A stretch of 64,000 bases of DNA from Pseudomonadota bacterium (GTDB lineage Bacteria; Myxococcota_A; UBA9042; GCA-2863065), in contig SXOO01000280.1 of NCBI GenBank assembly GCA_005776725.1, positions 7,425 to 71,424 of the forward strand, in the 5' to 3' direction. Shown here in pieces: positions 25,978 through 57,468 of the stretch (positions within the stretch are counted from its first letter, which is position 1; each line of letters opens with the position of its first letter). A program made the translations under genes and the position numbers. The notes beneath the pieces were generated by a model. That model was not told the origin of the DNA and did no database searches. It saw only the letters and a program-made list of their open reading frames with translations.

Positions 25978-28050
25978 GTGAGTCCTCGTTTCGCGCTTCT
26001 GCTCGTGCTCGCCGCCGCTTGTCGGTCTGGAGATCCCGCGCCCGCCGACGGGTGCGTGGCGGACAAGGACTGCAAAGGCGAGCGGATCTGCGTGCAGAAG
26101 GTGTGCGTCGACCCCACTCCAGCGGCCCCCGGCGCCGCAACAGCGCCCAGCGTGACCGCCCCGGCCGCCCCCAGCGCCGCACCGGCCACCCCCAGCGCCG
26201 CCCCAGCCGCTCCGCCAGTCCCTGACCGCCAGGCCGTCATCGCGTCGGCCCCCAGCCTCGGCGCCGCGGCGCCGGGCGTGCTCGTGATCTGGTTCGGGGA
26301 CCTCGAGTGCCCCCACTGCGCCCGCGCCACCCCGGTGGTCCGGAAGCTGATCGAGAAGCACGGCCGGCCAGACGGCACGGTGCGAGTCGAGTACCGGCAC
26401 AACCCGCTCGACCTCCACCCAGGCGCCCACCGGCTCGCCGTGGCCGCCGTGGCCGCGCACGTCCAGGGCCGCTTCTGGCAGCTCTTCGACAAGGTGGTCG
26501 AGGCGGGCGCGGGGCTCACCAACGATCGCCTCCAGGGCCTGGCCGACGGCGTCGGCATCGACGCGATCGCCTTCCACCGGGATCGGACCGCGCCGGAGGT
26601 GACCGCGCGGGTGGCGTCGGATCGGGCGCTCGCGCTCGCGCTGGGGGTCAAGGGGACGCCCGCGTTCTTCGTGAATGGGCGCCGCCTCGATGGCCAGGTC
26701 ACGTTCGAGGCCCTCGAGGCCCTCGTGAACGAGGAGCTCACTGCGCCGGTCGAGGGCGACCGCATCACCACGCGGACCCGCGCGAACAACGCGGAGCTGG
26801 CCGCTGTGCTCTTCGACGGCGCCACGCCCAAGCCCGCTCCGCCGCCGGCGCTCCCGCCGCCAGACGCCACGGTCTGGAAGGTCCCGGTGGACGCAGACGA
26901 CGCCTCGGAAGGACCCGCGGACGCCGCCGTCACGCTGGTGCTGTTCGGGGACCTCGAGTGCCCGTTCACCGCGCGGCTCTCGAAGACGCTGGAGTCGCTC
27001 CGTGAGCAGCGCCCCACCACCCGCCTCGTCTTCAAGCACCAGCCGCTGGCCGTGCACCCTCGCGCCGCTCGCGCCGCCCTCTATGGGGCGTGGGCAGCCA
27101 CGCACGGGCGCTTCTGGCCGTTCGCGCGCCACGTCCTCAGCGGCCAGCCCGCGCTGGCGGACGCCGATCTGGAGGCCGCGCTGCGGGCCGCCGAGGCGCC
27201 CGTCGAGGGGCTAGAGGCTGCCTTCGCCGGGCCGGCGCTGCGCGCTTCGATCGAGGCCGACCAGGCGCTGGCGGCACGGGTGGACGCGATCGGGACGCCG
27301 AACCTCTACGTGAACGGGCGACGACTCGTGGGCGCTCGTACCCTGGAGGAGCTGACGGCGCTGGTGGACGAGGAGGCCGCCAAGGCCGAGGCGCTGGCCA
27401 CCGCCGGGACCCCGCGGGCCGAGCTCTACGCCGCGATCATCGCCAAGGGTCAGGAGCGTCAGCCGTTGGGCGGGGCCGCGATCGACTTCGAGCTCACGGG
27501 CGCACCCCTTGGCGCCGCGGATGGCCCCGTGACCCTGGTGCTCTTCTCGGACTTCCAGTGCCCGTTCTCGAGCCGCCTCGTGCCGATCCTGGACCGCGCG
27601 ATCGCTCGGTTCCCGGGCAAGCTCAAGCTCTACTTCAAGCACTTCCCGCAGGACTTCCACACCGAGGCCCGAGCGGCCGCCGTGGAGGCGATCTGCGCCG
27701 CTGAGCAGGGCAAGTTCTGGGAGGTCTACCGGCAGTTCCTGGACGTGGAGCACCAGAAAGACCTGTCGGCGAAGGCGCGCGAGGGCCTCTTGAAGGCCGC
27801 GGGCGTGGACGTGGCCGCGGTGGGCAAGTGCGTGAACGAGAAGCGGGCCGACAAGGTGCTGGGCCGTGATCGCGAGGAGGCCGAGCGGGCCGAGGTGAAG
27901 GGCACGCCCACGCTCTTCATCAACGGGCGGCGCTTCACCTCCCCCACCGGGTACAACGACCGCTCCCTCGGGCGGGTGCTGGCCCAGGTGACGGGCCAGG
28001 CGCCAACCCCGGAGACCCCCAAGCCGGAGATCGCTCCCCCAGCGCCCTGA
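25978..28050 (+). CDS. lipoprotein with three tandem DsbA-like thioredoxin domains (active sites CPHC, CPFT, CPFS)
   Basis: Lipobox LAAAC with a Cys-rich N-terminal knot. Three repeats of ...V(L/T)LV(I/L)F(G/S)D(L/F)(E/Q)CP(H/F)(C/T/S)..., each with a downstream GTP(A/N/T)(F/L)(F/Y)(V/I)NGRR. Confidence 0.8.
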   Translation: MSPRFALLLVLAAACRSGDPAPADGCVADKDCKGERICVQKVCVDPTPAAPGAATAPSVTAPAAPSAAPATPSAAPAAPPVPDRQAVIASAPSLGAAAPGVLVIWFGDLECPHCARATPVVRKLIEKHGRPDGTVRVEYRHNPLDLHPGAHRLAVAAVAAHVQGRFWQLFDKVVEAGAGLTNDRLQGLADGVGIDAIAFHRDRTAPEVTARVASDRALALALGVKGTPAFFVNGRRLDGQVTFEALEALVNEELTAPVEGDRITTRTRANNAELAAVLFDGATPKPAPPPALPPPDATVWKVPVDADDASEGPADAAVTLVLFGDLECPFTARLSKTLESLREQRPTTRLVFKHQPLAVHPRAARAALYGAWAATHGRFWPFARHVLSGQPALADADLEAALRAAEAPVEGLEAAFAGPALRASIEADQALAARVDAIGTPNLYVNGRRLVGARTLEELTALVDEEAAKAEALATAGTPRAELYAAIIAKGQERQPLGGAAIDFELTGAPLGAADGPVTLVLFSDFQCPFSSRLVPILDRAIARFPGKLKLYFKHFPQDFHTEARAAAVEAICAAEQGKFWEVYRQFLDVEHQKDLSAKAREGLLKAAGVDVAAVGKCVNEKRADKVLGRDREEAERAEVKGTPTLFINGRRFTSPTGYNDRSLGRVLAQVTGQAPTPETPKPEIAPPAP

Positions 28051-28727
28051 TGTGGCAGTACTTCACCGAGACGCGCCGCCTCGGTGTGTCGCTGCTGATG
28101 GTCGCGCCGCTGCTCGTGGCGTACCAGGCAGGCCTCCTGATCGTCGGGGTCGAGGCGCTCAACGGCGCAGACTTCGTCACGCGTTACCTCCTCACCTTCG
28201 GGGGGCGCACCTTCCTGCTCCTCAACCTCGCGATCCTGTTCGCATTCGGCGTGGGCGTCGTGTGGCTGGACGGGAAGGGTCGCGGCACGGGCGATTACTT
28301 CATCCCCGTCTTCGTCGAGTCGCTCGCTTACGCGCTGGGCCTCGGCACCGTGGTCCTCCAAGTCATGGCGGAGGCGAGGCTCTTAGGCCCTGAGGCCGAC
28401 GGCACGCTCCTCTCGCGGCTAGTCCTCAGCGCCGGCGCCGGCATCCACGAAGAGCTGGTGTTCCGGCTGCTGCTCATGGGGGGCCTCATCGCGCTCGGGC
28501 GGCGGTTCGTAGACGCCCCCTTCGCGATCGGCGTCCTGGCGCTGGCGATCTCGAGCGTGCTCTTCTCACTCGCGCACTTCCGCGCAGAGCCCTTCGATAC
28601 CTTCGCGTTCTGGTTCCGCACTTTCGCCGGTGGGATCTTCGGCGTGCTGTACTGGGCTCGGGGCTTCGCCATCGCCGTCTACACGCACGCGTTCTACGAC
28701 GTCTTCGTCCTGGTGTTCCGACCGTAG
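28050..28727 (+). CDS. CPBP-family (CAAX/Abi) intramembrane metalloprotease
   Basis: ATG overlaps the upstream stop (TGATG). Multi-TM protein with the motifs HEELVFR, FSLAHF and HAFYD. Confidence 0.75.
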   Translation: MWQYFTETRRLGVSLLMVAPLLVAYQAGLLIVGVEALNGADFVTRYLLTFGGRTFLLLNLAILFAFGVGVVWLDGKGRGTGDYFIPVFVESLAYALGLGTVVLQVMAEARLLGPEADGTLLSRLVLSAGAGIHEELVFRLLLMGGLIALGRRFVDAPFAIGVLALAISSVLFSLAHFRAEPFDTFAFWFRTFAGGIFGVLYWARGFAIAVYTHAFYDVFVLVFRP

Positions 28728-33626: not shown

Positions 33627-34547
33627 GTGAAGCACATCCGGTCCTGCCTCGTCCTCTGGCTGATCCTCGGTCCGTTGGCGGCTGCCGCGGCGCCACCAGC
33701 GGAAGGCAACGTCAACCTCGTGAACTTCTCGCCGGCCGGCGGCCGGTACCGCCTGTTCGCGGTCGAGTCCGCGGACGTCGGCCCCGCCTGGCAACCCTAC
33801 GGACACGTCCTGTTCCACGGCGCGCGGGACGTCCTTCAGCTCAGCGCTGGCGACCACACCGAGACGGTGGTCAAGGAGCAATATCTCGCCGACGTGAACG
33901 TTGGCGTGGGGCTCTTCGGCTTCCTGTCGCTAGACCTCACCCTGCCGCTGGGCCTGGCGATGAGCTCCGGCGACGGCGCCACCTCGCTCGCCGGGGTCTC
34001 TGGCGCCGGCCTCGGGGATATGGTCGTCCGCATCAAGGGCACCCCGCTCGCCACCGGGACAGCGGGCTTCGGCGTCGGCTTGGAGCTCGCGGCCACCGTC
34101 CCCACCGGCGACGGCGACCGCTTCCGGGGAGACCCTGGCGCAGGCCTCATCGCGGCGGCGATCCTCGATCACGCGTGGTCGATCGCGCGCCTCTCGCTCA
34201 ACCTCGGCGTCCGGATTCGGTTCGAGGAGAGCTCCTACCTCAGCGCCACGTTCGGGAACGAGCTCACCTTCGGCCTCGGCGTCCTGGTCGAGCTCTTCGA
34301 CCGCCGCCTCGGCCTCGCCTTCGAGCTCCAGGGTCGCACGCCGCTCACCGCGGAGGCCTTCGACAACACCAACACCACAGCCGTCGAGATCATGCTCGGG
34401 CCGCGCTGGTGGATCATCGATTCACTGGCCTTCGAGCTCGGGCTCGGCGCCGGGTTGGTCCAGGGCCTCGGAGCGCCCACGTTCCGCTTCAACACGGGCT
34501 TCGTCTGGGCGCCAGCGGCCCTCGCAGCGCCGACGGGAACACCATGA
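33627..34547 (+). CDS. secreted beta-rich (putative outer-membrane barrel-like) protein, homologous to the penultimate domain of the two downstream giant proteins
   Basis: GTG with SD gaggag. Signal peptide, alternating Gly/hydrophobic pattern, C-terminal ...[11 protein letters not shown]. Colinear with giant1 (about 41091-41930) and giant2 (about 49186-49990), sharing [31 protein letters not shown] and GAGLVQG. Confidence 0.65.
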
Positions 34548-37500
34548 CGAGAGTCCTCTTCACCAGCCTCCTACTGGCCGCGCCCTTCGCGCGCGCCGCG
34601 GAAGATTGCGCGAACGGCATCGATGACGACGCCGCCGGCGGCGCGGACTGCGCGGATCCGGCCTGCGCGGCCGACCCGTTCTGCTCGCCCTGCAACGTCG
34701 ACCTCACGTTCGACACCGGCCAGGGTCCGGTCACCGTGCCCACGGCGGTCTTCACCTGGGCCCAGGCCACCGGCGACGGGCTCATCGCCTCGGGCGGGCT
34801 CGCGGGCCTCACCCCATCGGCGGTGTCCGACGTGTTCACGGTGCCGGTCGCGGTGCCAGCGGCGGGCGAAGCGCCCAGCCCGCGCGTGGAGGTGGTGTTC
34901 TCGCTGAAGAGCAAGGCGTCCGCCGAGGACACGCACCAGGACACCTTCACGGTCTGCGTCGGCGTGCCGTGTACGAAGGACACCCCCAACCCGCTCTACC
35001 GCACGAGCCGCGACACCACTCCAGGCCTGGCCCCTTTCGGCGTGCCCAGCCCGCCATCGTTCAATGACGGTGTTTTCGACCACGTCTTCCTCGACCTCAC
35101 GGCCCACGCTGGGTCCACCGTGACGCTCGCGTTCGCCATCGACGCGCCCGCAGGGGGCTCCGCCGGGCGAAAGGGTCTCCGCGTGTCACGCCTGATCGTC
35201 GGGTCGGACGTTGACGTAGACGGCGCCTTCGAGGGCGTCGCGGGCAGCTGCGACCGCTGCTGGGACGCCGACAAGGACACCTACGTCGACGCCGCGGGCC
35301 CGGCCACCGCGGCCGAGTGCACCGCCCCCGACCTGGACTGCGACGACACCAACGCCGCCGTGAACCCCGCCGCCGCAGAGCAGTGTGGCGTGGTGGGAGA
35401 CGACGACTGCGACGGCGTCGCCGACGCGCTCGACTCGGACTGCGGCGTGGAGGACTGCGCCAACGGGGCAGACGACAACGGCGACGGTCAGGTCGACTGT
35501 GCGGACGTCACCTGCGGGTCGGACGCCGCGTGCGCCCCATGCGGCACTGTCCTCAATCTCAACCGCGGCGGCGCGGCCTTCGTGGCCGCCGACGACAACC
35601 CCGACGCCAACGCCGCGACACGCCTCTTCACCCACGGGCCGAACCCCTCGCTCCCCACCGAGATCGGCTGGTGGACCGCCCGCACGGGCACGGTGAGCAC
35701 ACACTCGGGCGTGAAGCCGGTGCATGCCACGCTCACCCGCAGCTTCGATGTCTCGTCCGGCTCGCTCAGCCCCAGCCTGCGCGTGTCGTACCGCCTCCGC
35801 GGCGAGGCCGCGGCCGGCAAGGACGTGTTCGGCGTGTGCTTCAACACGCCCGCGACGGAGTGTCGGGCCGACGCCCCGGCGAGCGCCCTGGCCTTCTCGA
35901 CGCACGTCGACACCGCAGCCACCGGCACCACGAACATCGACGTGCCCCTGCCGGCGAACAGCGCGGGCAAGACGGTGTCGGTGACGCTGTTCTACGACAC
36001 GGTCGACGGCGCCAATAACGCGAACGCCGGCCTCTTCATCGACGCCGTGAACGTGGCCAGCGACGCCGACGCGGACGGCGCGTCCGAAGACTCGGTCACG
36101 CAAGGGTGCGACCGCTGCGTGGACCAGGACCTGGACACGTTCGGCCGTGAGGGGATCCCCGGCGTCTATGTGTCTGAGTGCGCGTCCAACAAGCGCGACT
36201 GCGCGGACACCATCGCCACGGCCTTCCCGGGAGCTACCGAGCTCTGCGACGGGACCATCGACCACGACTGCGACGGCAAGGCAGACGCGGACGACAGCGA
36301 CTGCACCACCTGCGGAGACGGCGTCGCCAGCGCCTCAGAAGAGTGCGACGACGGCGCCAAGATCTCGGGCGACGGCTGCAGCGCCAGCTGCGAGCTCGAG
36401 GCGAACGCGCTCGTCCTGAGCGAGCTCCACTTCACGAAGCTCTCCCCCACCGCCTTCGGGGAGCAGTTCGTCGAGCTCCAGAGCCGCACCCTCGCCAAGA
36501 TCCACCTCGGCGGGCTCGCCGCGGGCCTGCGTCGCAGCACCGGCCAGGAGCTCCGCTTCGCGGATTGCGCCGCCGCGAGCCTCGTCCTCGCCGGCAACGG
36601 GCGCGTTGTCGTGAGCCTCGGTACCGCGGGGACCTCCGACGGCCTCAACGCGGCGATCCGTTGCGACGAGGACTTTCAGCTCGACCCGACCGGCGACGTA
36701 GTCACCTTGCTATCTGGCGCAGACACGCTCGACACGGCCGACGCGCGCCCCTTCGCGTGCGAGCTGTCCGAGGCCGCCGCCGCGGGGCGCGGGCGGTCGC
36801 TGGAGCGCCTGAACCCGGCCAGCAACCCGAACGACGCGGCGTCTTGGTGCCTCGCGTCCACGGCGACGAGCTACGCCACCTCGGGCAAGCACCACGGCTC
36901 GCCCGGGTCCGCGGGCGCCTGTGCGGAGCGCGCCTGTGACGGCGTGGACGACGACTGCGACGGCGCCACGGACGAGCTCCTTCCCGATACCGACGCGGAT
37001 GGGACCTGTAACGACCGCGACTGCGCGCCGCTGGTACCTTCTTGCGCGCTGGACTGCGCCACGGACGTGGACGGGGACTCCACGCCCGACTGCCGCGACG
37101 GCTGCATCGACTCGGACGGCGATGGCTGGGGCGTGGCCGGAGGCCTCCCGAGCTCCACCTGCAAGACGCTCGCGGGCGTAGCGAAGAGCGACTGCGAAGA
37201 TGATCTGGCGTTCGCCAACCCCGCGGCGTCGGAGGGACCCAGCGCCGCCTCCTGCCTCGATGGCGTGGACGACGACTGCGACGGCACGCCCGACTGCACG
37301 GACCCGAGCTGCGCCGGCACCGCCGCGTGCTCCGGTGAGGCGTGCGGCCTGCCGCTCACCCTCACCTGCGGCCAGGTCCGAGTGATCGAGCCGGAGGGCA
37401 ACGACTTCCCCTGTGGGCCCGGTGCGGACGCGGTACTCCGCTTCGTCGCGCCGCGCACCGAGCTGGTTCGCCTCGACGTGAAGAGCGGCGGCAGCCAGCA

Positions 37501-40500
37501 GTACGCCGGCCGGATCTTCGACGTCGCGTGCTCGAATCAGGCCTGCGCGCCGGGGATCGCAGACGCCGAGTCGTCCTGCCAGGAGCCCGGAACCGCCACC
37601 TTCTCGGCCGTGGCCGCCAAGGCGTACACGATCGTCGTGGACCAGCTGGCCAGCTGCTCCGCGTCGGGCGCCGCGCCGGTCGAGATCAAGCTGACCTGCG
37701 CCGAGCACTGCACCGGCGGGGTCGACGACGACGGCGACCTCTTGGCCGACTGCGCCGACAGCGACTGCGTGAGCCAGGCGGTGTGCGCAGGACAGGACTT
37801 CGACGGCGACGGCATCGCCAATGGTCTCGAGCTCACGTGTGGCGCCAGCCCCACCTCGCCGTTCCAGTCGCCCTCCCCCGCCGACGTTCAGAACCCGGAC
37901 AACGACAGCCAGCTCTCGTGCGTGGACGCGGACGACGACAACGACGCCGCCTCTGACGTCGTGGAGGCCGCTCAGTGCGCCGCCGGTGCCTCCGTGGACG
38001 CCAGCGTGTACCCCGGCGCCCCGCGCCAGTGCGGCAACGCGGGCGTAGACGCGAACTGCAATGGCATCGTCGACTCCGCGGAGGCCGAGTGCGGCGCGGT
38101 CGAGTCGCAGTGCGCCGACGCCAAGGACAACGACAGCGACGGCGCCAAGGACTGCGCCGACCCCGACTGCATCCCCTCGCTCGCCTGCGCCGCCCTGGAC
38201 TTCGACGGTGACCTGATCGCGAACACCATCGAGCTCGCGTGTGGGACCAACCCGCTCGACAAGAACCTGAAGCCCACGGCCACCGGCGCCGCCGATGGGG
38301 ACGGCGACACGGTCCCGAGCTGCGCCGACGCGGACGACGATGGCGACGGCTGGGACGACGTGGTCGAGTTCTCGTGCGCGTCGAACCCCGTGAACGCGTC
38401 CTCGACGCCGGTCGACACGGACGGTGACACCCAGTGTGACGCCGTGGACCCGGACGACGACGCGGACGGCTTCGCGGACCTCATCGAGGTGCAGTGCGGC
38501 TCCAGCCCCACGCTGGCGACCGAGACGCCCATCGACGCGGTCCGTGACCTCGACCTCGACGGCGTTTGCAACGCTCGTGACGTGGACCTCGACGGCGACG
38601 ACTGGACCAACGGCGTCGAGGAGGCCTGCGGCACCGACGTCGCCGACGCCAACGACAACCCTGAGGCCGCCGGTCTCGACGGTGACGACGACGGGCTCTG
38701 CGACGCGCTCGATGGGGACGACGACGGTGACACCTGGTCCGATGAGAAGGAGGAGCTCTGCCAGAGCGATCCGCTCTCCCCGGACTCCGTGCCGGCCGAC
38801 GTCGACGGCGACAGCATCTGTGACGCCTACGACGTGGACGCAGACGACGATGGCTGGCCCGACACGCTCGAGGTGCTGTGCGGCACCAACCCGCTGCTGG
38901 CCGCGAAGAACCCCAGCGCCGAAGGCCAGGACGAAGATGCCGACAAGCTCTGCGACAGCCTCGACGCCGACGACGACGGCGACGGTTGGTCCGACGAGGC
39001 CGAGGCGGTTTGTGAGTCCGACCCGAGAGACCCCAACGCGCTGCCGGCGGACCTGGACGACGACCACGTGTGCGACCTCCGCGACGACGACGACGACGGG
39101 GACGAAGCGATGGATGCCAGCGAGCTGATCTGCGGCACGGATCCGGCGGATGCCACCTCGAAGCCGATCGACACCGACGGAGACGGCGTGTGCGATCCGG
39201 TGGACACCGACGCCGACGAGGACCTGGACGGCTGGAGCAACGGAGACGAGCTGGCGTGCGGAACCGACCCGAAGGTGCCGGCCGACAAGCCGCTGGACAC
39301 GGACGCGGACAAGGTCTGTGACGTGCTCGACGACGACGACGACAACGACGGCTGGAGCGACCTGTCGGAGCTGCTGTGCGGCACCTCCGCCACCAACGGG
39401 GCCGTGGAGCCCGTGGACACCGACGGGGACGCCACGTGCGACGCCATCGACACGGACGACGACGGCGACGGCGCCTCCGACGCAGATGAGGCGCTCTGCC
39501 TCACGGATCCGAAAGACCCCACGGTGCTCCCCTTCGAGCCCGATCTCGCGGACACGGACGGCGACCAGATCGCCGACTGCGTCGATCCCGACGACGACGA
39601 GGACGGCATCCCGGACGTGGTCGAGCTCGGCGATACGAAGCTCGCGGACACCGACACGGACGGCCTGGACGACGGGACGGAGGACGCCAACAAGAACGGC
39701 GTCGTGGACACGGGCGAGACCGACCCCACGAAGGGCGACACCGACGGAGACGGACTGATCGACGGTGAGGAGGTTGCGAGCTGCTACGGCGAGGCCTGCA
39801 CGAAGACCTCCCCGACGTCGCGCGACAGCGACTCGGACGGCCTGTCAGACGCGGAGGAAGACGCCGACAGCGACGGGAGCGTGGGCGAAGGCGAGACGGA
39901 TCCGACCGTGTTGGACACAGACGGCGACACCTCGAGCGACGGGGTCGAGGTCGGCTGCGCGACCGACCCGCTCGACGCGACCAGCTTCCCGGTGGACAAA
40001 GACCAGTCCGGCACCTGCGATGGCGCCGAGGCCGACAGCGACGGCGACGGGATCGCGGATGGCGTGGAGACGCGCTGCAAGACGCTCCCGGGCAGCGCTG
40101 CCAGCGTGCCGCCGCTCACCGAGCTAGACGACAAAGACGGCGACGGTGAGCTCGACTGCTACGACACCGACGACGACGACGACGGCGCGATCGACGCGGC
40201 CGAGGCCCAGTGCGGCACGTCCACGAAGGACGCGGGCGCGGTGCCGTCACCCGCGGATCTCGAGGACACCGATGACGATGGCCAGCTCGACTGCGCCGAC
40301 GACGATGACGACGCGGACGGACTCGACACGAACACAGAAAAGATCTGGGGGACCGACGCGCTCGATGGTGACACGGACGACGACGGGCTCTCTGATGGCG
40401 CAGAGGTCACCATCCACGGCACCGACCCGACAAAGCTCGACACCGATGGCGACGGCGTGGCCGACGGCGTGGAGCTCGGGGTCACCGAGCCCGTCTTCGG

Positions 40501-42760
40501 CACGGCGGACAGCTTCGAGCCCGATCTCGACCCGAGCACCGTGACGCACCCCACGCGCGTCGACACCGACGACGACGGCCTCGCCGACGGCTCCAACGCG
40601 CAGGGCGGGGAGGACATGAACCATAACGGGCGAGTGGACGCGAGCGAGTCGGATCCGAACGACCCGAACGACGGGCTCCGCGACCAGGACGGCGACGGGC
40701 TCATCGATCGCGACGAGCTCACCCTCTGGGACACGAAGGTGGACGATCCGGACTCGGACGACGACCAGCTCGACGACAAGCTCGAGGTCAGCGTGTACGA
40801 GACCAACCCGAACGACCCCGACTCCGACAAGGGGGGCATCGCCGATGGCGCCGAAGTCACGGCCGGTACGGATCCCACCAAGAAGGACGACGACTTCTCG
40901 GCCTCCAAGGTCGTAGGCGACAACGTGTTCGGCTGCGACGCAGGCGGCCCAGGCGCCCTCGGAGGCGCCGGCGGCGTCCTCGCGGCGCTCCTCGCCCTGC
41001 TCTTCGCCCTCGGGCGCCGGAGCTCGCGACCGCTCGTGGGGGGCCTGCTCTTGGCTGGGGCCCTTCTCCCCGGCGAGGCGGGCGCGCAGCGCGTCGGGAA
41101 CGTCAACGTCGAGCAGTACCAGCCCGCGGGCGGGCGCTTCCGCGTGTTCAGTGTGGAGCAGGCGCCTGTCGGGCCGGCTTGGCAGCCCTACGCGCACGTC
41201 CTGTTCCACGGCGAGCGGGAGAGCTTCCAGGTGGCCGACGCCGCCGGGATCCGCACCGAAGTCCTTGTCGACACGACCACCTTCATGGACCTGAACCTGG
41301 GCGTGGGCCTCGCCGGCATCCTGCAAGTAGACCTGGGCCTTCCGGTCGCGCTCGAGATGAGCACCGCTCCCGACGTGACCGCTGTGGAGCCGGTGGGACG
41401 CACAGACGGCGCGGGGCTCGGTGACCTGGTCCTGCGACTCAAGGGCACGGCCATCGACAGCACGGGAGGCGGATATGGGCTCGGCTTCACCCTCGGCGCG
41501 TCCTTCCCCACGGGCGATCCCGATCGCTTCCGCGGCGACGAGGGCGTGGTGGTCCTCCTCAATACGATCAATGAGTTCCGTTCCACCTGGGCGGTGCTCT
41601 CGCTCAACCTGGGCGGCCGGTTCCGCACGGCGCCAGTCGAGTTCCTCGGGCGCGACTACGGCAACGAGCTCTCATACGGTCTCGGCCTGGACGTGGCGGC
41701 CTGGATCGGCCACGTCAACCTGGGCCTCGAGCTCTTCGGGCGCACCCCGCTCACGGCGCCATTCGACGGTGTGGAGAACACCGGACTCGAGGCGCTGCTC
41801 GGCGTGAAGTGGTGGATCGTCTCGGGCCTGTCGCTCGAGATCGCAGGCTCCATGGGCCTTGTGCAAGGCGTGGGCACGCCCGACTTCCGGTTCGTCACGG
41901 GGCTCGCCTGGGCTCCTCGCGAGGCCGACACCGACGGTGACCTCATCGACGACGTGGACGACGCGTGCCCGCTCGAGGCCGAGGACAAGGACGGCTACGC
42001 CGACCTCGACGGCTGCCCAGAGGCGGACAACGACGGCGACGGCGTGGCCGACGCGAACGACAAGTGTCCCTACCAGCCGGAGGACAGGAACGGCAGCCTG
42101 GACGACGACGGCTGCCCGGACGGAGACGACGACGGAGACGGCAAGCTCAACATCGTGGACCGCTGCCCGAAAGGTGCCGAGGATCCGGACAACTTCCAAG
42201 ACGGCGACGGCTGCCCGGATCCAGACAACGACGGAGACGGGATAGACGACGTGAAGGACAAGTGCGCCTTGGTCGCCGGCGGGGCCACGGACACGAACCA
42301 CGATGGCTGTCCCGACGCGATCGAGCTCGAGATCGCCACTCAGACCCCCGAGGAGGCCGCTGATCCCTGTCAGTTCGAGATCGCCGAGCGGGTCCCCTTC
42401 GACCGGCTGTCCACGACGCTCGACTCCGAGGCCCGGGCGGTGGTTCGTTCAATGGGCGATCGCCTCCTCGCGCGCCTCACGGACAGCAAGTTGCCGCCGA
42501 TCGAAGAGGTGAGTGTCAACGGGCATACACGGGCCGAGGGCGCCGACGCGGAGACGCTCGCGCTCTCGCGGCGACGCGCCCAGTCGGTGCGGGACGCGCT
42601 GGTGGAGCGCGGCTCGGTTCCGAGGTCCATCACACCGGCGCGCGGCTACGGCGAGACCGAGCCGCTCTCTGAAGAAGCGTCGTCTCGGCGCGTGGAGATC
42701 AAGGTGAGGATCGGCGGCCGCTGTGCGGATGTCGGGGCGAAGACGGAGGGCGGCCGATGA
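34544..42760 (+). CDS. giant (2738 aa) acidic Ca-binding surface/OmpA-anchor fusion protein: SP, MopE-like motifs, lamin-tail domain, about 40 TSP3-like repeats, internal MYXO-CTERM-like + internal SP-like segment, barrel-like domain, TSP3 repeats, OmpA C-terminal domain
   Basis: ATGA overlap with 33627-34547. N-terminus [32 protein letters not shown] ([25 protein letters not shown]). TSP3-like repeats of the form DTDGDxxCDxxDxDDDGDGW plus CGTDP. OmpA motif [24 protein letters not shown]...SRRVEIKV. Confidence 0.8.
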
Positions 42761-45700
42761 AGTCCCACCACCTGCTACTCGCGCTCCTCGCGCTGGCCCC
42801 CCGCGCCTACGCGGCCGAAGACTGCGCCAACGGGATCGAGGACGACACCGGCGGCGCCGACTGCGCCGATCCCGCTTGCGCGGCTGACCCGTTCTGCACC
42901 GACCTCTGCGGCACGTCGCTCACCTTCGCCACCGGCCGGCACACGGCTGAGCTGCTCACGGGCTTCGTGCACGCCAGCGGCGGCCTCGAGGCCCAAGGCA
43001 CCGGCGCCCTCAAGGTGGACCTGGTGGTGCCGCTCGAGCGCCCCGAGGCCAGACTCGAGCTGGTCCTCCGCAAGGAGGGCGCCGATCCGCTCCACGTCTG
43101 CCTCGACCTCGCGTGCACGCAGCCCCTGCTCACGGTGAACGGCGCCTCGGGGTCCATCACCCACACAGCCGGCGGGTTCTACGACGGCACCTTCGATCAC
43201 GTCTTCGTGGACCTCACGAGCAAGCGCGGGTCCACGCTGGCGGTCTTTGTGGTGGTGCCAACGGTCGCCACGGGGAATCCGCTCACGCGGCTCGAGGCGC
43301 TGCGGCTCTCGTCCGACGTGGACCGCGACGGCTTCTTCGACGGCGCCGCGGCGAGCTGCGACCGCTGTTGGGACGTAGACAACGACGGCGCCGCGCGCGC
43401 CGATAGCCCTGGCCTCTGCGGCGTTGCGGACTGCGACGACACGACCAGCGCCCGAGCTCCGGGCCTGACCGAGCTCTGCAGCGGGGGGATCGACGAGGAC
43501 TGTGACCTCCTGGTCGACGGTCTAGACGTCGGGAGCTGCGGTATCGAAGACTGCGCCAACGGGGCGGACGACAACGGCGACGGCAGCATCGACTGCGCTG
43601 ACCAGACGTGCGCCAGCGACCCCGCCTGCAGCCCGTGCCTGCCGAAGCTCACGTTCGCAACGGGGACCAACGGCGCCGTCGCCAGCGACAACGATCCCGA
43701 CGGTAATACGCAGACCCAGGTCTTCCGCCAGGGCGCCAGCGCGGCTCACGCGGGGGCGATCGGCTTCTCGACCGCGCTCACGGGCACGGTCTCTAGCCAC
43801 GGCGGCGGCCGGATCACTGCGGCGATCGCGCGCACCTTCCCTGTGCCATCCGGCCTCCCGGCACCGACCCTGCGCCTGCGGTATGCGCTCGATGGGGACG
43901 CGCAGGCGGGCAAGGACGTCGTCCTCGTGTGCTTCGACGTCAAAGCCTCGAACTGCACCACGTCCGTCACCGGCGCCGCTACGTGGACCTCTGACGTGAA
44001 CACCGGAGTGGGGATCGTGACCGTGGAGGTGCCCCTCCCCACGTCGGCCATCGGCGCGGTGAACGTGGTCGTGGCCTACGACACGGTCGACGGCGGCGGA
44101 AACGGCAACCGCGGGCTCTTCGTCGATGAGCTCAGCGTCGGGAGCGACCTCGACGGCGATGGGCTCGGCGAGGACCCGGCCATCGTGGGATGTGACCTCT
44201 GCGTCGACGCCGACGACGACGGCTACGCGCCCGCCTCGGTCGCCGCGGTCTTCGCCAGCGGATGCACCTCGGTCGCCGCCGACTGCGACGACGACTCGGT
44301 CGTCGCTAATCCCGGCGCCACGGAGCTCTGCGATCTGGTCGGCGATCAGGACTGCGACGGGCTGGCAGACGCCGAGGAGCCGAGCTGCTCCTCTTGCGGC
44401 AACGGCGCCGTCACCGCTGGCGAGACCTGCGACGACGGCGGGATTGCCCCCGGCGACGGCTGCTCGGCCACCTGCCGCCTCGAGACCGGCGCCCTGGTGG
44501 TGACGGAGCTGCACCTCACGCGGTTCGACCCCACGGCCCTCGGCGAGCAGTGGCTCGAGCTCTACAACGCCACGTCGGCCCCCATCGACCTCGCGGCATC
44601 CGGGATCACCCTCGGGCTGGACGTCTCTGTGCCGCTGCGCGACTGCACCGTGCTCACCACCTCTGTCGTGGCGCCCGGCGGCCGGCACGTGGTGGCCCTG
44701 GGGCCGCAGAACACCCTCGACGGCCTCGACGCGGATCTCGCGTGCGGCTCCGGCACGCTGGGCGGCCTCGTCGCGGTCTCGGCCGAGAACGACTCGCTCG
44801 ACACCGTTGACCTCGCGGCCCTCGGCTGCGAGCTGGCGGGCGCCACGAAGCCCGGCGTTGGGCGCTCGCTCATCACCGCGGCCACGGTCCACACGGGCAA
44901 CGACGCGGCCTCGGCGTGGTGCCTGGCGTCCACCGCCAGCTCGTACGCGAACTCCGGCCGTCACCACGGCTCACCCGGGTCCGGCGGGGGATGCGGCGAG
45001 GTGGTCTGCGACGGCATCGACGACGACTGCGACGGAACGATAGACCAGGGCTTCCCTGACGCGGACACCGACGGGACCTGCGACGCGCGGGACTGCGCGC
45101 CCCTGGTGAAGAGCTGCACCAATGATTGTACGACCGACGTGGACCTCGACAGCACCCCGGACTGCCGGGACGGCTGCATCGACGGCGACGGCGACGGTTG
45201 GGGCACGCCCGGCGGCCTCTTGCCCGCGACGTGCAAGACCCAGGGCGGGACGCCGCGCACGGACTGCGACGACACGCTCACCATCGTGAGCCCAGAGGCC
45301 ACCGAGGGCGGCGCGTCCTGCACCAACGGCCTGGACGACGACTGCGACGGCAAGGCGGACTGCTCGGACAGCGCGTGCGGCCTCACCGCGGCGTGCGCGG
45401 GCGAGAGCTGCGCCGCGCCCACCCCTCTCGCGTGCGGCGCCACGGTGGTGGTGGAGCCCGAGTCCAACGACGCCACCTGCAGCCCGGGCGTGGACTCGGT
45501 CTTCGTCTTCAACAGCACCTTCGACGGGAACGTGATCCTCGAGGTCCAGAACCTCGGGCGCCTCCAGTACAACGCGTTCCTCCACAAGACGAGCTGCAAC
45601 GCGGCGTGCCCGGCCGGGATCGCGCCCATCGGGAGCACCTGCGCGGCGGCCGGGAGCGGCACGGTCCCCGTCACGCCGGGCACCCCACTGTTCATCACGC

Positions 45701-48700
45701 TCGACAACGTGTCGGCCTGCGCGGGTAGCGGCTCGGGCGCGGCGCGCCTCACGCTGCGGTGCTCGGAGGCCTGCTCCGGCGGCGTGGACGACGACGCGGA
45801 CGGCAAGACCGACTGCGCGGACGACGACTGCGTCGCCTCGGTCAGCTGCGCGAACGTGGACTTCGACGGCGACGGGCGGGCGAACGGCGTCGAGCTCATC
45901 TGCGGGCGGGATCCCGTGAACCCGGGCTCCGTACCGTCGGCCGACGACGTGGCAGAGGCCGACACCGACACGCTCCTCAACTGCGTGGACAACGACGACG
46001 ACAACGACGGCCACTCCGACAGCACCGAGGCCTCCCAGTGCCAGCTGAGCGCGGGCGCCAAGAACGACTCGGACGTCTATCCCGGCGCGCCGCTGCAGTG
46101 CGCCATCGCCGCGGTCGACGCCGACTGCGACGGCTTCTTCGACAGCGAGTCGGCCGAGTGCGGCTTCATCGAGCAGCAATGCGGCGACAACCTCGACAAC
46201 GACGGCGACCAGAAGGCGGACTGCCAGGACCTCGACTGCGTTCTCCTGCCCATCTGCGGCCTAGCCGACTTCGACTCGGACGGCGCCTCGAACCGCACCG
46301 AGCAGCAGTGCAACACGAAGCCGACTCAGGCCTCCTCCGTGCCGAGCGACGCCGCGGCGTCGGATCAGGACAACGACACCCTCGCTGCCTGCATCGACAC
46401 CGATGACGACGGGGACCAATCCGACGACACCGAAGAGCTGCTGTGCGGCTCGGATCCGGCCGACGCGACGTCGACGCCCCCGGACCTGGACAACGACGGG
46501 CAGTGCGACGCGTTCGACGACGATGACGACGCCGACGGCTTCCCGGATCTCGTTGAGGTGGACTGCGGCAGCGACCCGGAAGACGCTGGGAGCCGCCCGG
46601 ATCAGCCGGCCTACGATCTGGACGACGACGACATCTGCGACGCGCGCGACGCCGACCGAGACGGCGACGACTGGACGGACGCGGAGGAGAACACCTGCGG
46701 GACCAGCCTCGCCAATGCCTCCGAGAGCCCGAGCAGCGCGGGCCTCGACGTGGACGACGATCACCTCTGCGACGCGGTGGACGAGGACGACGACGGTGAT
46801 GACTGGTCAGACGCCGAAGAGCTGCTCTGCGAGACCAACCGGCAGGACGCGGCAGACTCCCCGGCCGACACCGATGACGACGGCATCTGCGACCTCATCG
46901 ACTCGGACCCCGACGGCGATCTCTGGCCGGACGTCCTCGAGACCCAGTGCGGCACGTCTGCGTTGATCCCCGCCGACAACCCGACGGCCCTCGGCGCCGA
47001 CGTGGATGGAGACATCCTCTGCGACAAGCTCGACTCGGACGACGACGGCGACGGGTGGAGCGACGTCCTCGAGGTCCAGTGCGGGACCTCGCCGGCGCTC
47101 AAGGCGTCGGCGCCCACGGACACGGACGGCGACAAGACCTGCGATCCGAGCGATGACGACGACGACGGCGACGTGTCGCTGGACGCCACCGAGGCGCTGT
47201 GCGGCACGGACCCTCTGTCGGCCGAGTCCACCCCTGTCGACACGGACAACGACGGCCTCTGCGACGCGCGCGACCCGGACGCGGACCCCGATGGCGACGG
47301 CTGGTCCAGCTACAAGGAAGAGGCGTGTGGCACCAAGCCCCACGATGACAGCTCCACCCCCACGGACGCGGATGCGGACGGCGTGTGTGACGCGCTCACC
47401 GTGGACGACGACGGCGATGGCTGGCCCGACGCGGTGGAGGTGAGCTGCGGCACGGCGCCCGAGCTCGCGTCGAGCACGCCGGTCGACACCGACAAGGACG
47501 GCCAGTGTAACGGGGTCGATACCGACGACGACGCGGACGCCGCCCCGGACACCGCCGAGCTCACCTGCGGGACCGATCCGCTGGACGCGAAGAACCACCC
47601 CACCACGCTGGACCTCGTCGACGCGGACGGCGACGACGCGCCCGGCTGCGTGGACGAAGACGACGACAACGACGGGCTCCCCGATGTGGCCGAGGCCCTC
47701 CAGGGCTCCAACCCGCTGGTCACCGACAGCGACGGCGACGGCCTCACGGATGGCGAAGAAGACAGCGACCTCGACGGGACGCGCGACCCGAACGAGACCT
47801 CGCCGGTGCTCCCAGACACCGACGGCGACGGGCTATCGGACCGGGTCGAGACCCTGAGCTGCTATCTCGGCGACGGCGCGGCCACCGCATGCCAGGAGTC
47901 GAGCCCCACGAAGCCGGACTCCGACGAAGACGGTGTCCCCGATGGCCTCGAGGACAAGAACGGCGACGGGAAGACCGACGACTCCGAGACGAACCCCCTG
48001 AAGCTCGACACCGACGCGGACGGCCACAGCGATGGGTACGAGCTCGGCTGCGCGACCGATCCGCTCGCAGCGGAGAGCGTCCCGGTCGACAAAGACGCCT
48101 CGGACGTGTGTGACGGCGCCGAGGTCGACAGCGACGCGGACGGGATCGCCGATGGCGTCGAGCTGCTCTGCGGGACGAAGCCGCTGGACAAGAAGTCGGT
48201 GCCAGAGCTCGGCACGCTGGTCGACACCGATGGTGACGGCGACCTCGACTGCAGCGACGAAGACGACGACGACGACGGCACCCCCGATGTCTTCGAGCTG
48301 GCGTGCGGCACGGGCCCGCTCGACGCCGCCGCCAAGCCCCCCGAGGGCGCCACCGCCGACACCGACGGCGACGGCACGCTCGACTGCGCCGACTCGGACG
48401 ACGACGGCGACGGCCTGTCGGACACGGGCGAGCAGACGCTGGGGACCGACGCGCTCGACGCCGACAGCGACGACGACGGCCTCCTCGACGGCTACGAAGC
48501 AGGCATCACCGGGACCTCGCCGAACGCGGCGGACAGCGACGGCGACGGCGTGCAAGACGGCACCGAGCTGGGCGTGACCGAGTCCGGGCCGTTCACCGGG
48601 CCGAGCTTCCAGGTGGACGCCGATCCCGCCACCACCACCGACCCGCGCTCCGACGACACGGACAACGACGGCCTTACCGATGGCCTCGAGGACGCGAACG

Positions 48701-50823
48701 CGAACGGCAAGGTCGACGCGGGTGAGTCCGATCCGAACGTGGCCGCAGACGGGAAGAAGGACACCGACGGCGACGGCCTGGCGGACGTCGTTGAAGAGTC
48801 GCTGTGCGAAGAGGGCGTTTGCCTCGATCCCACGAACCCCGACACCGATGGAGACGGCGTGAACGACAAGCTCGAGAAGGACGTCCACGGGACCTCGCCG
48901 TTCGCGGCCGACACCGACGGCGGCGGCGTGAACGACGGGTTCGAGCTCTCGAACGGCACCGATCCGAAGGACGCCGTCGACGACTTCAGCAAGGCCACCG
49001 TCACCGGAAACAACGTCTTCCGCTGCGATGGCGGCCCGGGCTCCCCCGGGGGCGCGGGCGTGTTCCTGCTGGTGCTCCTCGGGCTCCTGGTGAGCCGTCA
49101 CGCGCGGCGCGGCGCCCTGCTCGCTCTGGTGGGCCTGCTCGGGCTCGCCTCGAGCCTGCCTGGGACCGCGAACGCGCAGACCGCCGGCAATATGAACATC
49201 GAGAACTTCTACCCGGCGGGCGGTCGCTACCGTGTCTTCTCGGTGGAGCAGTCCGTGGTGACCCCGGCGTGGCAGCCGTTCGGCCACCTGCGCTTCCATG
49301 GGGAGCTCGACACGCTCCGCGTGCAGACCGGCAGTGCCGAGCAGGTCCTGGTGGAGATGCAGACGGTGGCTGACCTCGGCATCGGGCTCGGGCTCGGCGA
49401 CTGGGCGCAGCTCGAGGTGGCCCTGCCGTTCATCGCGTCGGTGTCGTCCGGCGATGACGTGAGCGCCATCGCGCCGATCGAGGGCGCCGGGCTCGGGGAC
49501 CTGGTCGTGCGAGTCCGCGGCACCTTCCTCCCGAACCGGGTGGGCGGCGTCGGTGTGGGCATGTCGGTTGGGGCGACGATCCCCACCGGCGACGGCACGC
49601 GCTTCCGCGGTGATCCGGGGGTCGGGGTCCTCGCCAACTTCCTGCTCGACCACCGGAGCGAGCGCGTGGACGTGGCCCTCAACGTGGGCGTTCGTATCCG
49701 CACCGAGGAGGCCGAGTTCCTGGGCCGGACCTTCGGCAACGAGCTCACGTACGGCGTGGGAGTGGACGTCAGCCTCCTGCGGCGGCGCATCGACATGGGC
49801 GTGGAGCTGTTCGGGCGCACCCCGCTCGAGGAGCCGTTCGGGGACGCGGACCACACCACGCTCGAGCTGCTGGGCGGCCCGAAGTGGTGGATGTGGCAGG
49901 GCCTTGGCCTCGAAGCGCACGTCGGCGCCGGGCTCGTCCAAGGCTACGGCGCACCGAGCTTCCGCTTCGGTCTCGGGCTCTCCTGGGCCCCCGCCCACGA
50001 GGACGCGGACGGCGACGGTGTGAGCGACGACACCGACGCCTGTCAGTTCACGGCCGAGGACAAAGACGGCTGGGCTGACGACGACGGCTGCCCAGATCTG
50101 GACGACGACAACGACAACTTCGCGGACAAGGACGACCGCTGCCCGCGCGAGCCCGAGGACCGCAACGGCATCGACGACGGCGACGGCTGCCCGGACGGCG
50201 ACGTCGACGGCGACCGTATCGCCGACGCGATCGACCTGTGCCCGTACGACCGCGAGGACGTGGATCTGTTCGAGGACCGCGATGGCTGCCCCGAGCTCGA
50301 CAACGACCATGACGGGATCCTCGACACCGCGGACGCCTGCACCGAACAGGCCGAGACCATCAACGGCTTCAAGGACCGAGACGGCTGCCCGGACGAAGCG
50401 CCTCCCATCGTGAAGCGGAACGTGGTGCAGTGCCGCCTCCAGCTCGCCCGGATCGGCTTCGATCAGGCGAAGGACGTGCTGCGGCCAGACTCCCAGGCCA
50501 AGCTGAACCGCGTGGCCGAGGCGATCGCGAGCTACGTGTCGAACGGCGACCCCCCGCTGCTGCACGTCTACGTGTCGGGCCACGCCTCGGAAGAGGGTAC
50601 GGACGTGAACAACTACGACCTCTCGCTGCGGCGCGCACTGCAGGTGTACGACTTCCTCCTCGACCGGGGGATCTCGGCGTCGCTCCTGGCGCGACGGGGC
50701 TTCGGCGAGGCGAAGCCGCTCCTCGACGAAGAGGGTGACCCCGCGCTCCGCGACAATCGCCGCGTCGAGTTCGACGTGGAGCTCGGCGGGCCCTGCGCCG
50801 GCGCGGCCGTCTCCACCGACTGA
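42757..50823 (+). CDS. giant (2688 aa) paralog with the same architecture
   Basis: ATGA overlap. Colinear with 34544-42760. OmpA motif [24 protein letters not shown]...NRRVEFDVE. Confidence 0.8.
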
Positions 50824-51000: not shown

Positions 51001-51882
51001 ATGCGCGTGCTCACGATCGACTTCGAGTGCTGGCCCCAGATGGTGTACGGCGAGCTGACGGGCCAGGACCGGGCGGTCGGGCGCGACGGGCTGGAGCGGG
51101 CCACCGATACGCTCCTCGCGCTCACCGAGCGCCACGGCGTGCGAGCCACGGTGTTCGTGCTCGGGGTCACGGCGCGGGCGTTTCCGGACTTGGTCCGGAG
51201 AATCCACGCAGCAGGCCACGAGCTCGGCGCCCACGGTGAGACCCACGAGCGCCTGGACCGTCTCACGCCGGCGCGCCGCCAGGCGTCGATGCGCGCTGTG
51301 AAGGCGCGTCTCGAGGACCTCGTGGGCGCCCCGGTCCGCGGCTTCAGGGCGCCTTACTTCTCGATCGTGCGGAGCAACCTCGACGCGCTCGAGGAGCTGG
51401 CGGACGCCGGTTTCGCCTACGACAGCTCAATCGTACCCATCGTGCATCGACGCTACGGCGTTCCCGGCTGGCCTCGCGGTCCCGAGCGCGTCGCCGGCGG
51501 GAGGCTCGTGGAGCTTCCGCTGGCCACGGTCGCAGTGGGCGCAGGGAACCTCCCCGTCGCGGGCGGGGGGTACTGGCGCGCCTTGCCCGACTCGTGGGTG
51601 GTGCGGGGCCTCGAGGCTGCGAATGACCAGCCTGCCGTGGTCTATCTGCACCCGTATCAGCTGGACCCGCAGCCGCCCGAGGCGGTCCCGGGGCCGCTCG
51701 GTCCGCTGAACCGCCTCCGGGCCGGTGCGTTCCGCCTGGCTCAGCGACTCGGGCGGTCGGGGAACCCTGCCCTGCTCGACCGGGTCCTGCAGACCGGGCA
51801 GTGGACCACAGCCGGGGAGCTCGTGGACGCGTTCTTGACGGCCGCTCCCCCATCCGCCACACCCGGTGCGCAATGGAGATGA
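51001..51882 (+). CDS. polysaccharide deacetylase family protein (NodB-like, DUF3473-type as found in exosortase/EPS loci)
   Basis: MRVLTIDFECW...HGVRATVFVLG...GHELGAHGETHE...GFRAPYFSI. Confidence 0.75.
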   Translation: MRVLTIDFECWPQMVYGELTGQDRAVGRDGLERATDTLLALTERHGVRATVFVLGVTARAFPDLVRRIHAAGHELGAHGETHERLDRLTPARRQASMRAVKARLEDLVGAPVRGFRAPYFSIVRSNLDALEELADAGFAYDSSIVPIVHRRYGVPGWPRGPERVAGGRLVELPLATVAVGAGNLPVAGGGYWRALPDSWVVRGLEAANDQPAVVYLHPYQLDPQPPEAVPGPLGPLNRLRAGAFRLAQRLGRSGNPALLDRVLQTGQWTTAGELVDAFLTAAPPSATPGAQWR

Positions 51883-57219: not shown

Positions 57220-57468
57220 TCTCAGTCAGCGCACGGCGGCGCGGTGCGCGTCGCCGCGCCAGACGTGAGGGGCGAGCAGACGCTTGGCTCGACCTCGGCG
57301 GGTGCCTTGAGATAGACTCCCGCCGCCCGTTCCGCCGCCCCAAAAGCTGTGTGGACGGGCGAGATCACAGCCGGGTCCGCTCCAGCATGGTCGGTCGCCG
57401 GCGTGGTCGCTTCAGGCGACCACATGCCATGCGGTGCGTGCCCGCACCGTCGACTCAGGGAGCGGACG

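Follow-up and report, generated by a model that had tools for sequence, protein, structure and literature searches.

The described systems that come closest to the two giant genes analysed here, which lie at 34544-50823 of a 64,000-nt stretch of DNA from an uncultured member of Myxococcota (GenBank contig SXOO01000280.1, positions 7,425 to 71,424 of the forward strand; hereafter the window, whose numbering is used throughout), are the kin-recognition pair TraA/TraB and the Myxococcus xanthus protein MXAN_5598. [quoted passage not shown] MXAN_5598 has an internal MYXO-CTERM sorting tag, a barrel and an OmpA domain, and an analogy to TraA plus TraB was drawn by its authors in their Discussion (PMC11980579, mBio 2025). 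They proposed that the N-terminal part is processed and surface-anchored, citing sorting tags that work when internal, and they called internal tags rare (PMC11980579). For MYXO-CTERM proteins in general, lipidation of the Cys followed by cleavage by MrtX is the published working model, and the dependence of their surface display on the type II secretion system (T2SS) has been shown experimentally in M. xanthus (PMC11980579). Internal tags and OmpA fusions are not mentioned in the Haft myxosortase preprint.

Each of the two giant genes carries a Cys-rich, Ca-binding surface module, an internal MYXO-CTERM-like tag, a signal-peptide-like segment and a TraB-like module of barrel, TSP3 repeats and OmpA-like domain in one open reading frame (ORF). 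The reading that we favor, with a probability of about 0.6, is that each giant joins two complete precursors of envelope proteins in a natural in-frame fusion and is cut into two partner proteins. An earlier sequence-only reading of this DNA had suggested a TraA/TraB-like two-part logic; our analysis adds the probable identity of the segment behind the tag as a signal peptide, the conservation and frequency of the junction, the pattern of a constant cassette behind variable heads, and the operon of three barrels.

Two giant genes in a three-gene operon

The interval 34544-50823 is exactly occupied by two + strand ORFs, giant 1 (2738 aa) and giant 2 (2688 aa) (Table 1). The two products are 48% identical, and their colinearity runs from the signal peptide through to the final domain; they are therefore old tandem paralogues in which the whole reading frame has been preserved. 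The sequence-only reading had placed a MYXO-CTERM-like surface module and an OmpA-anchored module in one ORF, twice, and this is what we found, with PF00691 matches above the cutoff in both C-terminal modules. An ATGA overlap joins giant 1 to giant 2, and another joins a smaller upstream gene, encoding a barrel-only TraB-like protein, to giant 1. The ATG of giant 2 is preceded at 6 nt by a GGAGGG Shine-Dalgarno (SD) sequence; SD-like sequences before the starts of the barrel-only gene and giant 1 are weaker. Neither promoters nor terminators were detected by scans of the two ends of the operon, a negative that is uninformative at 70% GC. The locus is most likely a translationally coupled operon of three genes, one for a barrel-only TraB-like protein and two for paralogous polyproteins.

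The DNA comes from a metagenome assembly, and a lost stop codon or a frameshift could in principle have joined two separate genes. This explanation is effectively refuted. The same in-frame junction is present in both paralogues, which are only 48% identical, and it is kept in two independent assemblies, in 12 other loci from metagenome-assembled genomes (MAGs) and in cultured Stigmatella aurantiaca. The two assemblies (a 145.6-kb ENA metagenome contig and an 86-kb NCBI contig) differ by 1-2 aa, and both ORFs are open in each. Public gene calls for the source contig contain the same two giant products, and the G+C content at third codon positions (0.86-0.92) is typical of real genes in 70% GC sequence.

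The C-terminal modules belong to a wider TraB-like family

For both C-terminal modules and for the barrel-only gene, the top NCBIfam family was NF033763 (exchanger_TraB), with 120 bits for giant 1, 171 bits for giant 2 and 59.5 bits for the barrel-only gene against a cutoff of 700 bits. The matched stretches together cover model positions 17-497 of 522, barrel included. Scores so far under the cutoff mark these proteins as homologues in a wider TraB-like family and not as TraB orthologs. The two-part logic suggested from the letters thus finds support in the C-terminal module, the TraB profile matching the barrel region itself. The similarity is at family level, and the N-terminal module is not related to TraA.

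An AlphaFold2 (AF2) model of the mature C-terminal module of giant 2, built from 13 sequences, reached a mean predicted local distance difference test score (pLDDT) of 74.8, with higher values in the barrel (Table 1), which has about 12-14 strands. In Foldseek comparison with the PDB the model matched the COG4313 channel 4rl8 with a template modelling score (TM) of 0.72-0.73 (target-normalised) and FapF with TM 0.56-0.68; the NalP translocator was a weaker match (TM 0.50). The Capnocytophaga gingivalis OmpA structure 5wtl, which covers the periplasmic TSP3 and OmpA part, was matched at 32% identity, and the OmpA-like domain of giant 2 matched the C-terminal domains of OprF and OmpA with TM 0.71-0.73.

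A passenger followed by a 12-strand barrel recalls type V secretion systems, and the structural matches include a polypeptide transporter, FapF, and more weakly NalP. Read in this way, each giant would be an autotransporter-like or FapF-like unit in which the C-terminal barrel is the outer-membrane translocator of the N-terminal module and not its anchor partner. We consider this unlikely on several grounds. Between passenger and barrel lie a conserved helix, an Arg cluster and a predicted signal peptide, which are seen in no autotransporter, and the barrel is not C-terminal but is followed by periplasmic TSP3 and OmpA parts. With about 105 Cys and numerous Ca sites, the passenger is likely to fold in the periplasm, and its bulk would be too great for a pore of 12 strands. 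An equally good structural match, 4rl8 (TM 0.72), is a small-molecule channel; none of the autotransporter Pfam families matched the giants; and MYXO-CTERM proteins of M. xanthus travel by the T2SS (PMC11980579).

The reading of each giant as two joined precursors draws on the barrel-only paralogue that opens the operon. This protein has its own N-terminal signal peptide and is without a TSP3 or OmpA part; it shares 49% identity with giant 1 over the barrel, gives 31.4 bits with PF13557 and matches TraB model positions 17-298. Its mature N-terminus, GNVNLVNF, aligns just past the AGA/Q site of giant 1 (the slash marks the predicted cut). The order of a barrel-only gene and then a giant recurs in two related loci, L013 and L014. 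With three paralogous barrels encoded together in one operon, a hetero-oligomer might be suspected. FapF, a structurally similar barrel, is a trimer.

The closest free barrel-only homologue, P0001 of another related locus (L002:713-3091; 51% identical), stands directly after an rsmH-like methyltransferase gene (Methyltransf_5); the next ORF, which overlaps it by 4 nt and is cut by the contig end, also encodes a secreted product. The rsmH-like Methyltransf_5 gene opens cell-division dcw gene clusters, and the setting of P0001 recalls that of MXAN_5598 within the M. xanthus cell-division cluster.

A sorting tag and a signal-peptide-like segment meet at the junction

The two modules are joined through a short junction, aa 2129-2181 in giant 1 and aa 2088-2140 in giant 2, each followed by Q. 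The first half is the MYXO-CTERM-like tag. In both giants it is tripartite, as MYXO-CTERM requires, with an invariant Cys, a hydrophobic helix and a basic cluster (RRSSR in giant 1, RHARR in giant 2). It scored 18.3 bits with TIGR03901 in giant 2 (E 0.0023, model positions 6-34 of 34) and 10.4 bits in giant 1, both below the cutoff of 20, so that "MYXO-CTERM-like" is the correct wording and not certified membership. The tag is internal, about 550-580 aa before the C-terminus. Elsewhere in the window, a partial ORF at 1-2130 (+) ends in DDAGCGTTRQAGGRWPVAALLAFALLALARRR*, that is, in a terminal Cys, helix and RRR tail of MYXO-CTERM type by eye; the organism thus appears to use ordinary C-terminal tags as well.

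The second half of the junction is built like a Sec signal peptide, with n-, h- and c-regions, and ends in AGA/Q in giant 1 and ANA/Q in giant 2. It occupies the position at which the free-standing homologues and the barrel-only gene bear their N-terminal signal peptides. When fused members were compared with 41 free-standing homologues, the h-region was of equal length, the n-region was positive, and position -1 was mostly Ala with a usually small residue at -3. These features point to a signal peptide, and the strongest evidence for that assignment is the barrel-only paralogue upstream.

A signal peptide at this position could also belong to a C-terminal module translated on its own from an internal start, in which case the apparent fusion would be a same-frame gene overlap or the result of a lost stop codon. 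TraA and TraB are, after all, encoded by separate, overlapping genes (PMC3325183), and in giant 2 an in-frame GTG (V2112) stands directly before SRHARR, where initiation would yield a textbook signal peptide. Giant 1, however, has no ATG, GTG or TTG ahead of its basic n-region (RRSSR). Across 14 junctions there was no conserved internal start; candidates were scattered and almost never accompanied by an SD-like sequence, in contrast to the true start of giant 2 with its GGAGGG. Moreover, even if an internal start were used, translation would still read through to a full-length product, for which the same processing would be required. We therefore regard separate translation as very unlikely, and we return to the GTG below as a point that weighs against the fusion of two precursors.

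The fusion is widespread in Myxococcota

An exhaustive profile search with the junction and C-terminal module recovered 3760 proteins at E<1e-30, and junctions were counted in the best 150 cluster representatives. A signal peptide stands directly before the barrel in 41 of these 150 (free-standing proteins), and in 38 more than 110 aa precede the start of the barrel. Of these 38, 34 passed an automated check for the series Cys, helix, basic loop, second helix and AxA, and the remaining four look alike by eye. A scan of whole proteins detected the junction in 54/150 representatives, a count that includes about two false positives and at least three misses. The length past the junction is about 510-650 aa throughout, and the length before it varies between about 100 and 5370 aa; a constant barrel/OmpA cassette is thus combined with interchangeable surface modules.

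Species-representative genomes contained 15 related loci, all in Myxococcota-type MAGs, of which 12 are fused in the same way, tag included. Cultured Stigmatella aurantiaca, Hyalangium and a Bradymonadia MAG likewise have fused members (WP_143101335.1 is a Stigmatella homologue), which are annotated there as "OmpA family", "Ig-like domain-containing" or "MYXO-CTERM domain-containing" protein. Such labels hide the proposed two-product nature of the ORFs. One related locus, L005, has two tandem giants; a short ORF after them (L005:12838-13314) matches the mid-barrel only (profile positions 134-223) and is possibly a decayed third copy.

The surface module was not seen without its OmpA-bearing partner: all nine related giants in Myxococcota MAGs have the barrel within the same ORF. 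The sequence-only reading had also pointed to split, two-gene versions in related genomes as something to look for. None was found for the giants' subfamily, and the free-standing homologues in L003 and L018 have no upstream MYXO-CTERM gene; these were the two with usable upstream flanks, L007 ending at a contig edge.

The surface module is a mosaic head on a Ca-binding repeat array

The N-terminal module comprises about 2100 aa in each giant and is acidic, Cys-rich and Ca-binding, with about 105 Cys; the net charge of the whole ORF is about -440. Its head contains acidic double-disulfide repeats (NF033662, 53.4 bits against a cutoff of 41), two related jelly-roll-like beta-sandwich domains, MopE-type Cys motifs, a DUF4215 Cys repeat, a lamin-tail domain (LTD)-like domain and a PPC-like domain. 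Within the family, PF11617 was found in 6/6 members, DUF4215 in 5/6 and LTD, below threshold, in 5/6. For the lamin-tail domain named in the sequence-only reading, the matches stay sub-threshold. PF00932 was the top family in four of five homologous segments, at 19-25 bits against a gathering cutoff of 34.3 and over model positions 7-105 of 109; giant 1 itself gave no PF00932 match.

One head segment (aa 334-510) was modelled by AF2 from a 4-sequence alignment as a jelly-roll beta-sandwich with a predicted TM score of 0.70 and pLDDT of 67. Its structural matches were weak (TM 0.4-0.5) and comprised a carbohydrate-binding module, MAM and the ephrin-receptor ligand-binding domain. They may be taken as a hint that the modelled beta-sandwich could be a ligand-binding domain, and as nothing more.

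Behind the head lies the very large Ca-binding array that had been read from the letters, and the numbers bear it out: DxDxDGxxD-type motifs number 37 in giant 1 and 42 in giant 2 over the whole proteins, against about 1.3 expected from shuffles. The array is about 1000 aa long with a unit length of 40-45 aa. In giant 1, TSP3_bac was matched above its cutoff at 33.7 bits, and the array resembles the repeat region of CglD (91.8 bits). The lack of a PA14 domain held up as well, since PA14, TIGR04201 and TraA had no Pfam or NCBIfam match in the N-terminal modules, even at E<=10.

The head is homologous over its full length to giants in four related loci (L004, L005, L013 and L014) and over part of its length to five others. 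All of the full-length relatives of the N-terminal module came from the genome loci; the query of cluster representatives gave patchy matches to MopE, acidic-disulfide, DUF4215 and PPC-like parts. A profile of the module run against PDB sequences matched only a teneurin Cys-rich patch (E 0.015). Word-index homologue searches returned 5, 25 and 8 matches and missed most relatives and even the giants themselves, though the collection contains their exact sequences. The candidate lists of such searches are probably swamped by low-complexity Asp/Cys repeats, and negatives of this method for such proteins are not trustworthy.

A proposed processing model for the giants

In the route that we propose for the cut fusion, Sec would export part 1, the secreted module of about 2100 aa with a beta-sandwich tip and a Ca-binding repeat stalk, until the MYXO-CTERM helix halts transfer and leaves the Arg cluster in the cytoplasm. 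The next hydrophobic segment would then restart export as an internal signal peptide, and signal peptidase I would cut after AGA in giant 1 (A2181) or ANA in giant 2 (A2140). [quoted passage not shown] The outcome would be a surface adhesin and a wall-tethered barrel partner, made in a fixed 1:1 ratio from one ORF.

Two adjacent hydrophobic helices with a basic cytoplasmic loop are also a normal hairpin topology. What the data show for the giants is their architecture, the homology of part 2 to TraB, the match in position between the internal segment and real signal peptides, and the conserved junction; the two cuts, the surface display, the partnership of the two parts and a role in adhesion are our inference. 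If neither cut were made, the hairpin would hold a single chain in the inner membrane with its two halves in the periplasm, where it might serve for instance as a tether spanning that compartment. Cleavage nevertheless seems necessary because the barrel starts only 1-10 residues past the second helix: an uncut chain tethered in the inner membrane could neither reach the outer membrane nor insert a barrel there, and this barrel is well conserved and confidently modelled as an outer-membrane barrel. Moreover, the small residue at -1 (mostly Ala) and the usually small one at -3 are conserved as in the free-standing homologues, and the M. xanthus counterpart MXAN_5598 was detected in the outer-membrane vesicle/outer-membrane proteome (PMC4158809). 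An uncleaved product is accordingly improbable.

Several points weigh against two precursors that are fused and then cut. Both cleavages are inferred for every member of the class. The MYXO-CTERM scores of both tags lie under the cutoff and the tag is not at a C-terminus. The -3/-1 analysis is a crude gauge of likeness to a signal peptide, and the in-frame GTG before the basic n-region of giant 2 leaves room for separate translation. The one CPBP protease that the window contains (28050..28727) does not resemble MrtX (14 bits with Mrt_core, against 100), nor is it found in synteny in relatives. Finally, the N-terminal module is unrelated to TraA, so that a physical partnership between it and the barrel is offered by analogy.

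Going further, and tentatively, since here the odds seem to us somewhat less than even, the junction may be a polyprotein device in general use among Myxococcota, as opposed to a rare accident. A TraB-like cassette of about 550 aa would be placed behind interchangeable surface modules (100 to >5000 aa) and cut off by signal peptidase I and a myxosortase, giving adhesin and barrel in a 1:1 ratio; at the present locus the three barrels, one bare and two tethered by OmpA, could form a FapF-like hetero-oligomeric platform for the two giant adhesins.

Table 1. Features of the operon and of its two giant genes, in window coordinates (aa, amino acid positions in the respective product).
Feature	Position	Strand	Basis and remarks
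Barrel-only TraB-like paralogue, first gene of the operon	33627..34547	+	306 aa; P0002 in public gene calls
Giant fusion gene 1	34544..42760	+	ORF, public gene calls, second assembly
Giant 1, N-terminal signal peptide (predicted cleavage before A)	34544..34597	+	translation; -3/-1 rule
Giant 1, mosaic head, aa 20-1090	34601..37813	+	domain matches, relatives
Giant 1, LTD-like domain within the mosaic head	about 36395-36928	+	sub-threshold in relatives
Giant 1, Asp-rich, Cys-containing Ca-binding repeat array, TSP3-like	37814..40873	+	27 of 37 motifs
Giant 1, internal MYXO-CTERM-like signal (FGCDAGGPG..., helix, GRRSSR), aa 2129-2162	40928..41029	+	Cys2131 at 40934-40936
Giant 1, internal signal-peptide-like segment, then Q	41015..41086	+	aligned position with signal peptides of free-standing homologues
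Giant 1, 12-strand outer-membrane barrel, TraB-like, COG4313/FapF class	41087..41923	+	TraB model; PF13557 20.9 bits, cutoff 22
Giant 1, four TSP3 repeats (DxDGCPD units), barrel-OmpA linker	41924..42397	+	sequence reading
Giant 1, OmpA-like peptidoglycan-binding domain, aa 2619-2714	42398..42685	+	PF00691 43.4 bits, cutoff 27.2
Giant fusion gene 2, colinear paralogue of gene 1	42757..50823	+	ORF, public gene calls
Giant 2, Ca-binding repeat array	45889..48981	+	30 of 42 motifs, unit spacing
Giant 2, internal MYXO-CTERM-like signal (FRCDGGPG..., helix, SRHARR), aa 2088-2118	49018..49110	+	Cys2090 at 49024-49026
Giant 2, internal signal-peptide-like segment, then Q	49096..49176	+	sequence reading
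Giant 2, barrel	49177..50010	+	AF2 pLDDT 85-94, Foldseek
Giant 2, OmpA-like domain, aa 2568-2665	50458..50751	+	PF00691 44.7 bits, cutoff 27.2

Genes around the operon

Upstream of the operon lie genes for a triple-DsbA-like protein, the CPBP protease, a major facilitator superfamily transporter and phosphofructokinase, and exopolysaccharide (EPS) genes follow downstream; none of these neighbours is a conserved partner of the giants. At 25978-28727 (+) a 690-aa protein with three DsbA/thioredoxin-like domains is encoded with a 1-nt overlap to a 225-aa CPBP/Rce1-like intramembrane protease, which weakly matches MrtJ (25 bits) and Mrt_core. Such a pairing is suggestive beside substrates with about 105 Cys and a Cys-tag, yet none of the related loci shows it in synteny with the giants, and the two genes were rejected as conserved partners. 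The protease was likewise rejected as the myxosortase, as which it is not recognisable.

The EPS-type cluster (51001-55978, +) is directly downstream of giant 2. It encodes an XrtA-system-like polysaccharide deacetylase with DUF3473 (198 bits, cutoff 276), a GT4 fused to a polyprenyl glycosylphosphotransferase, and a large Wzy_C/O-antigen-ligase-like membrane protein. One gene boundary in it is uncertain, ORFs 51801-53645 and 52877-55978 overlapping in different frames. Further on, at 57316-59361 (+), a 681-aa protein with a choice-of-anchor D/HYDIN-like Ig domain (41 bits, cutoff 45) is followed by a 515-aa protein without family match; the two are a probable further surface-protein pair.

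Significance and comparison with known systems

If the processing model is true, the giants represent a bacterial route to two differently sorted envelope proteins from one ORF. A sorting tag plus an internal signal peptide would then act as a cleavage cassette for two proteases, a principle otherwise known mainly from viral polyproteins, and the TraA/TraB principle would apply not just to a single kin-recognition system but to a large, modular class of surface adhesins in myxobacteria.

Among structural relatives of the barrel, the COG4313/Phenol_MetA_deg channels (4rl8) and the FapF amyloid transporter (5o65) have the same 12-strand fold and PF13557 matches. Their identity to the giants is only 13-18%, they are without a TSP3/OmpA tail, and they are not fused to a surface protein. 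The OmpA of Capnocytophaga gingivalis (5wtl) shares the Ca-binding linker and the peptidoglycan anchor, with a different N-terminal membrane part and in another phylum. A classical type Va autotransporter has its barrel at the extreme C-terminus and neither helix nor signal peptide between passenger and barrel, and the giants differ from it on both counts.

With respect to the proposed processing, the cytochrome b/c1 precursor FbcH of Bradyrhizobium is cut by signal peptidase at an internal signal sequence. Signal peptidase also cuts the structural polyproteins of Flaviviridae at internal signal sequences (PMC7601889). The proposed logic of a helix followed by an internal signal is the same in the giants; the likeness is one of analogy only, with no sequence relationship and no C-terminal sorting tag in those polyproteins.

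The C-terminal modules resemble TraB in showing a signal-peptide-like segment, a barrel, four DGCPD TSP3 units and an OmpA domain, and by score (120-171 against 700 bits) they form a subfamily paralogous to it. What the giants would share with TraA/TraB as a whole, by analogy, is a Cys-rich surface part of MYXO-CTERM type with a beta-sandwich head, a barrel/TSP3/OmpA partner, and linked expression of the two. TraA/TraB are two genes, whereas each giant is one ORF in which the C-terminal module is fused in frame to the module upstream. TraA has a PA14-like variable domain, TIGR04201 Cys-rich repeats and a terminal MYXO-CTERM; the N-terminal module of the giants matches none of PA14, TIGR04201 and TraA, is about three times the length of TraA and is dominated by Ca-binding repeats. 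The locus is not TraA/TraB itself: its scores stay under the TraB cutoff, the TraA features are absent, and the genes are fused and not overlapping.

The closest counterpart is MXAN_5598. Going by its published description, the giants share its plan, in which a single ORF holds an adhesin region at the N-terminus, an internal MYXO-CTERM, an outer-membrane barrel and an OmpA domain. The TraA/TraB idea of the sequence-only reading is correct and was already in print for this protein; new beyond that reading are the printed precedent, the signal-peptide-like segment after the tag, the barrel-only paralogue at the head of the operon and the wide spread of the fusion. MXAN_5598 sits in a cell-division cluster beside ftsA/ftsZ, and the locus of the giants lies between housekeeping genes and an EPS cluster. 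Unlike MXAN_5598, the gene here is tandemly duplicated and has a barrel-only paralogue in front. The internal signal peptide is absent from the account given in the MXAN_5598 paper, and the junction was found here in about a third of the best TraB-like representatives (about 54/150). The class is thus commoner than the published remark on rare cases suggests, and it includes proteins of cultured Stigmatella and Hyalangium.

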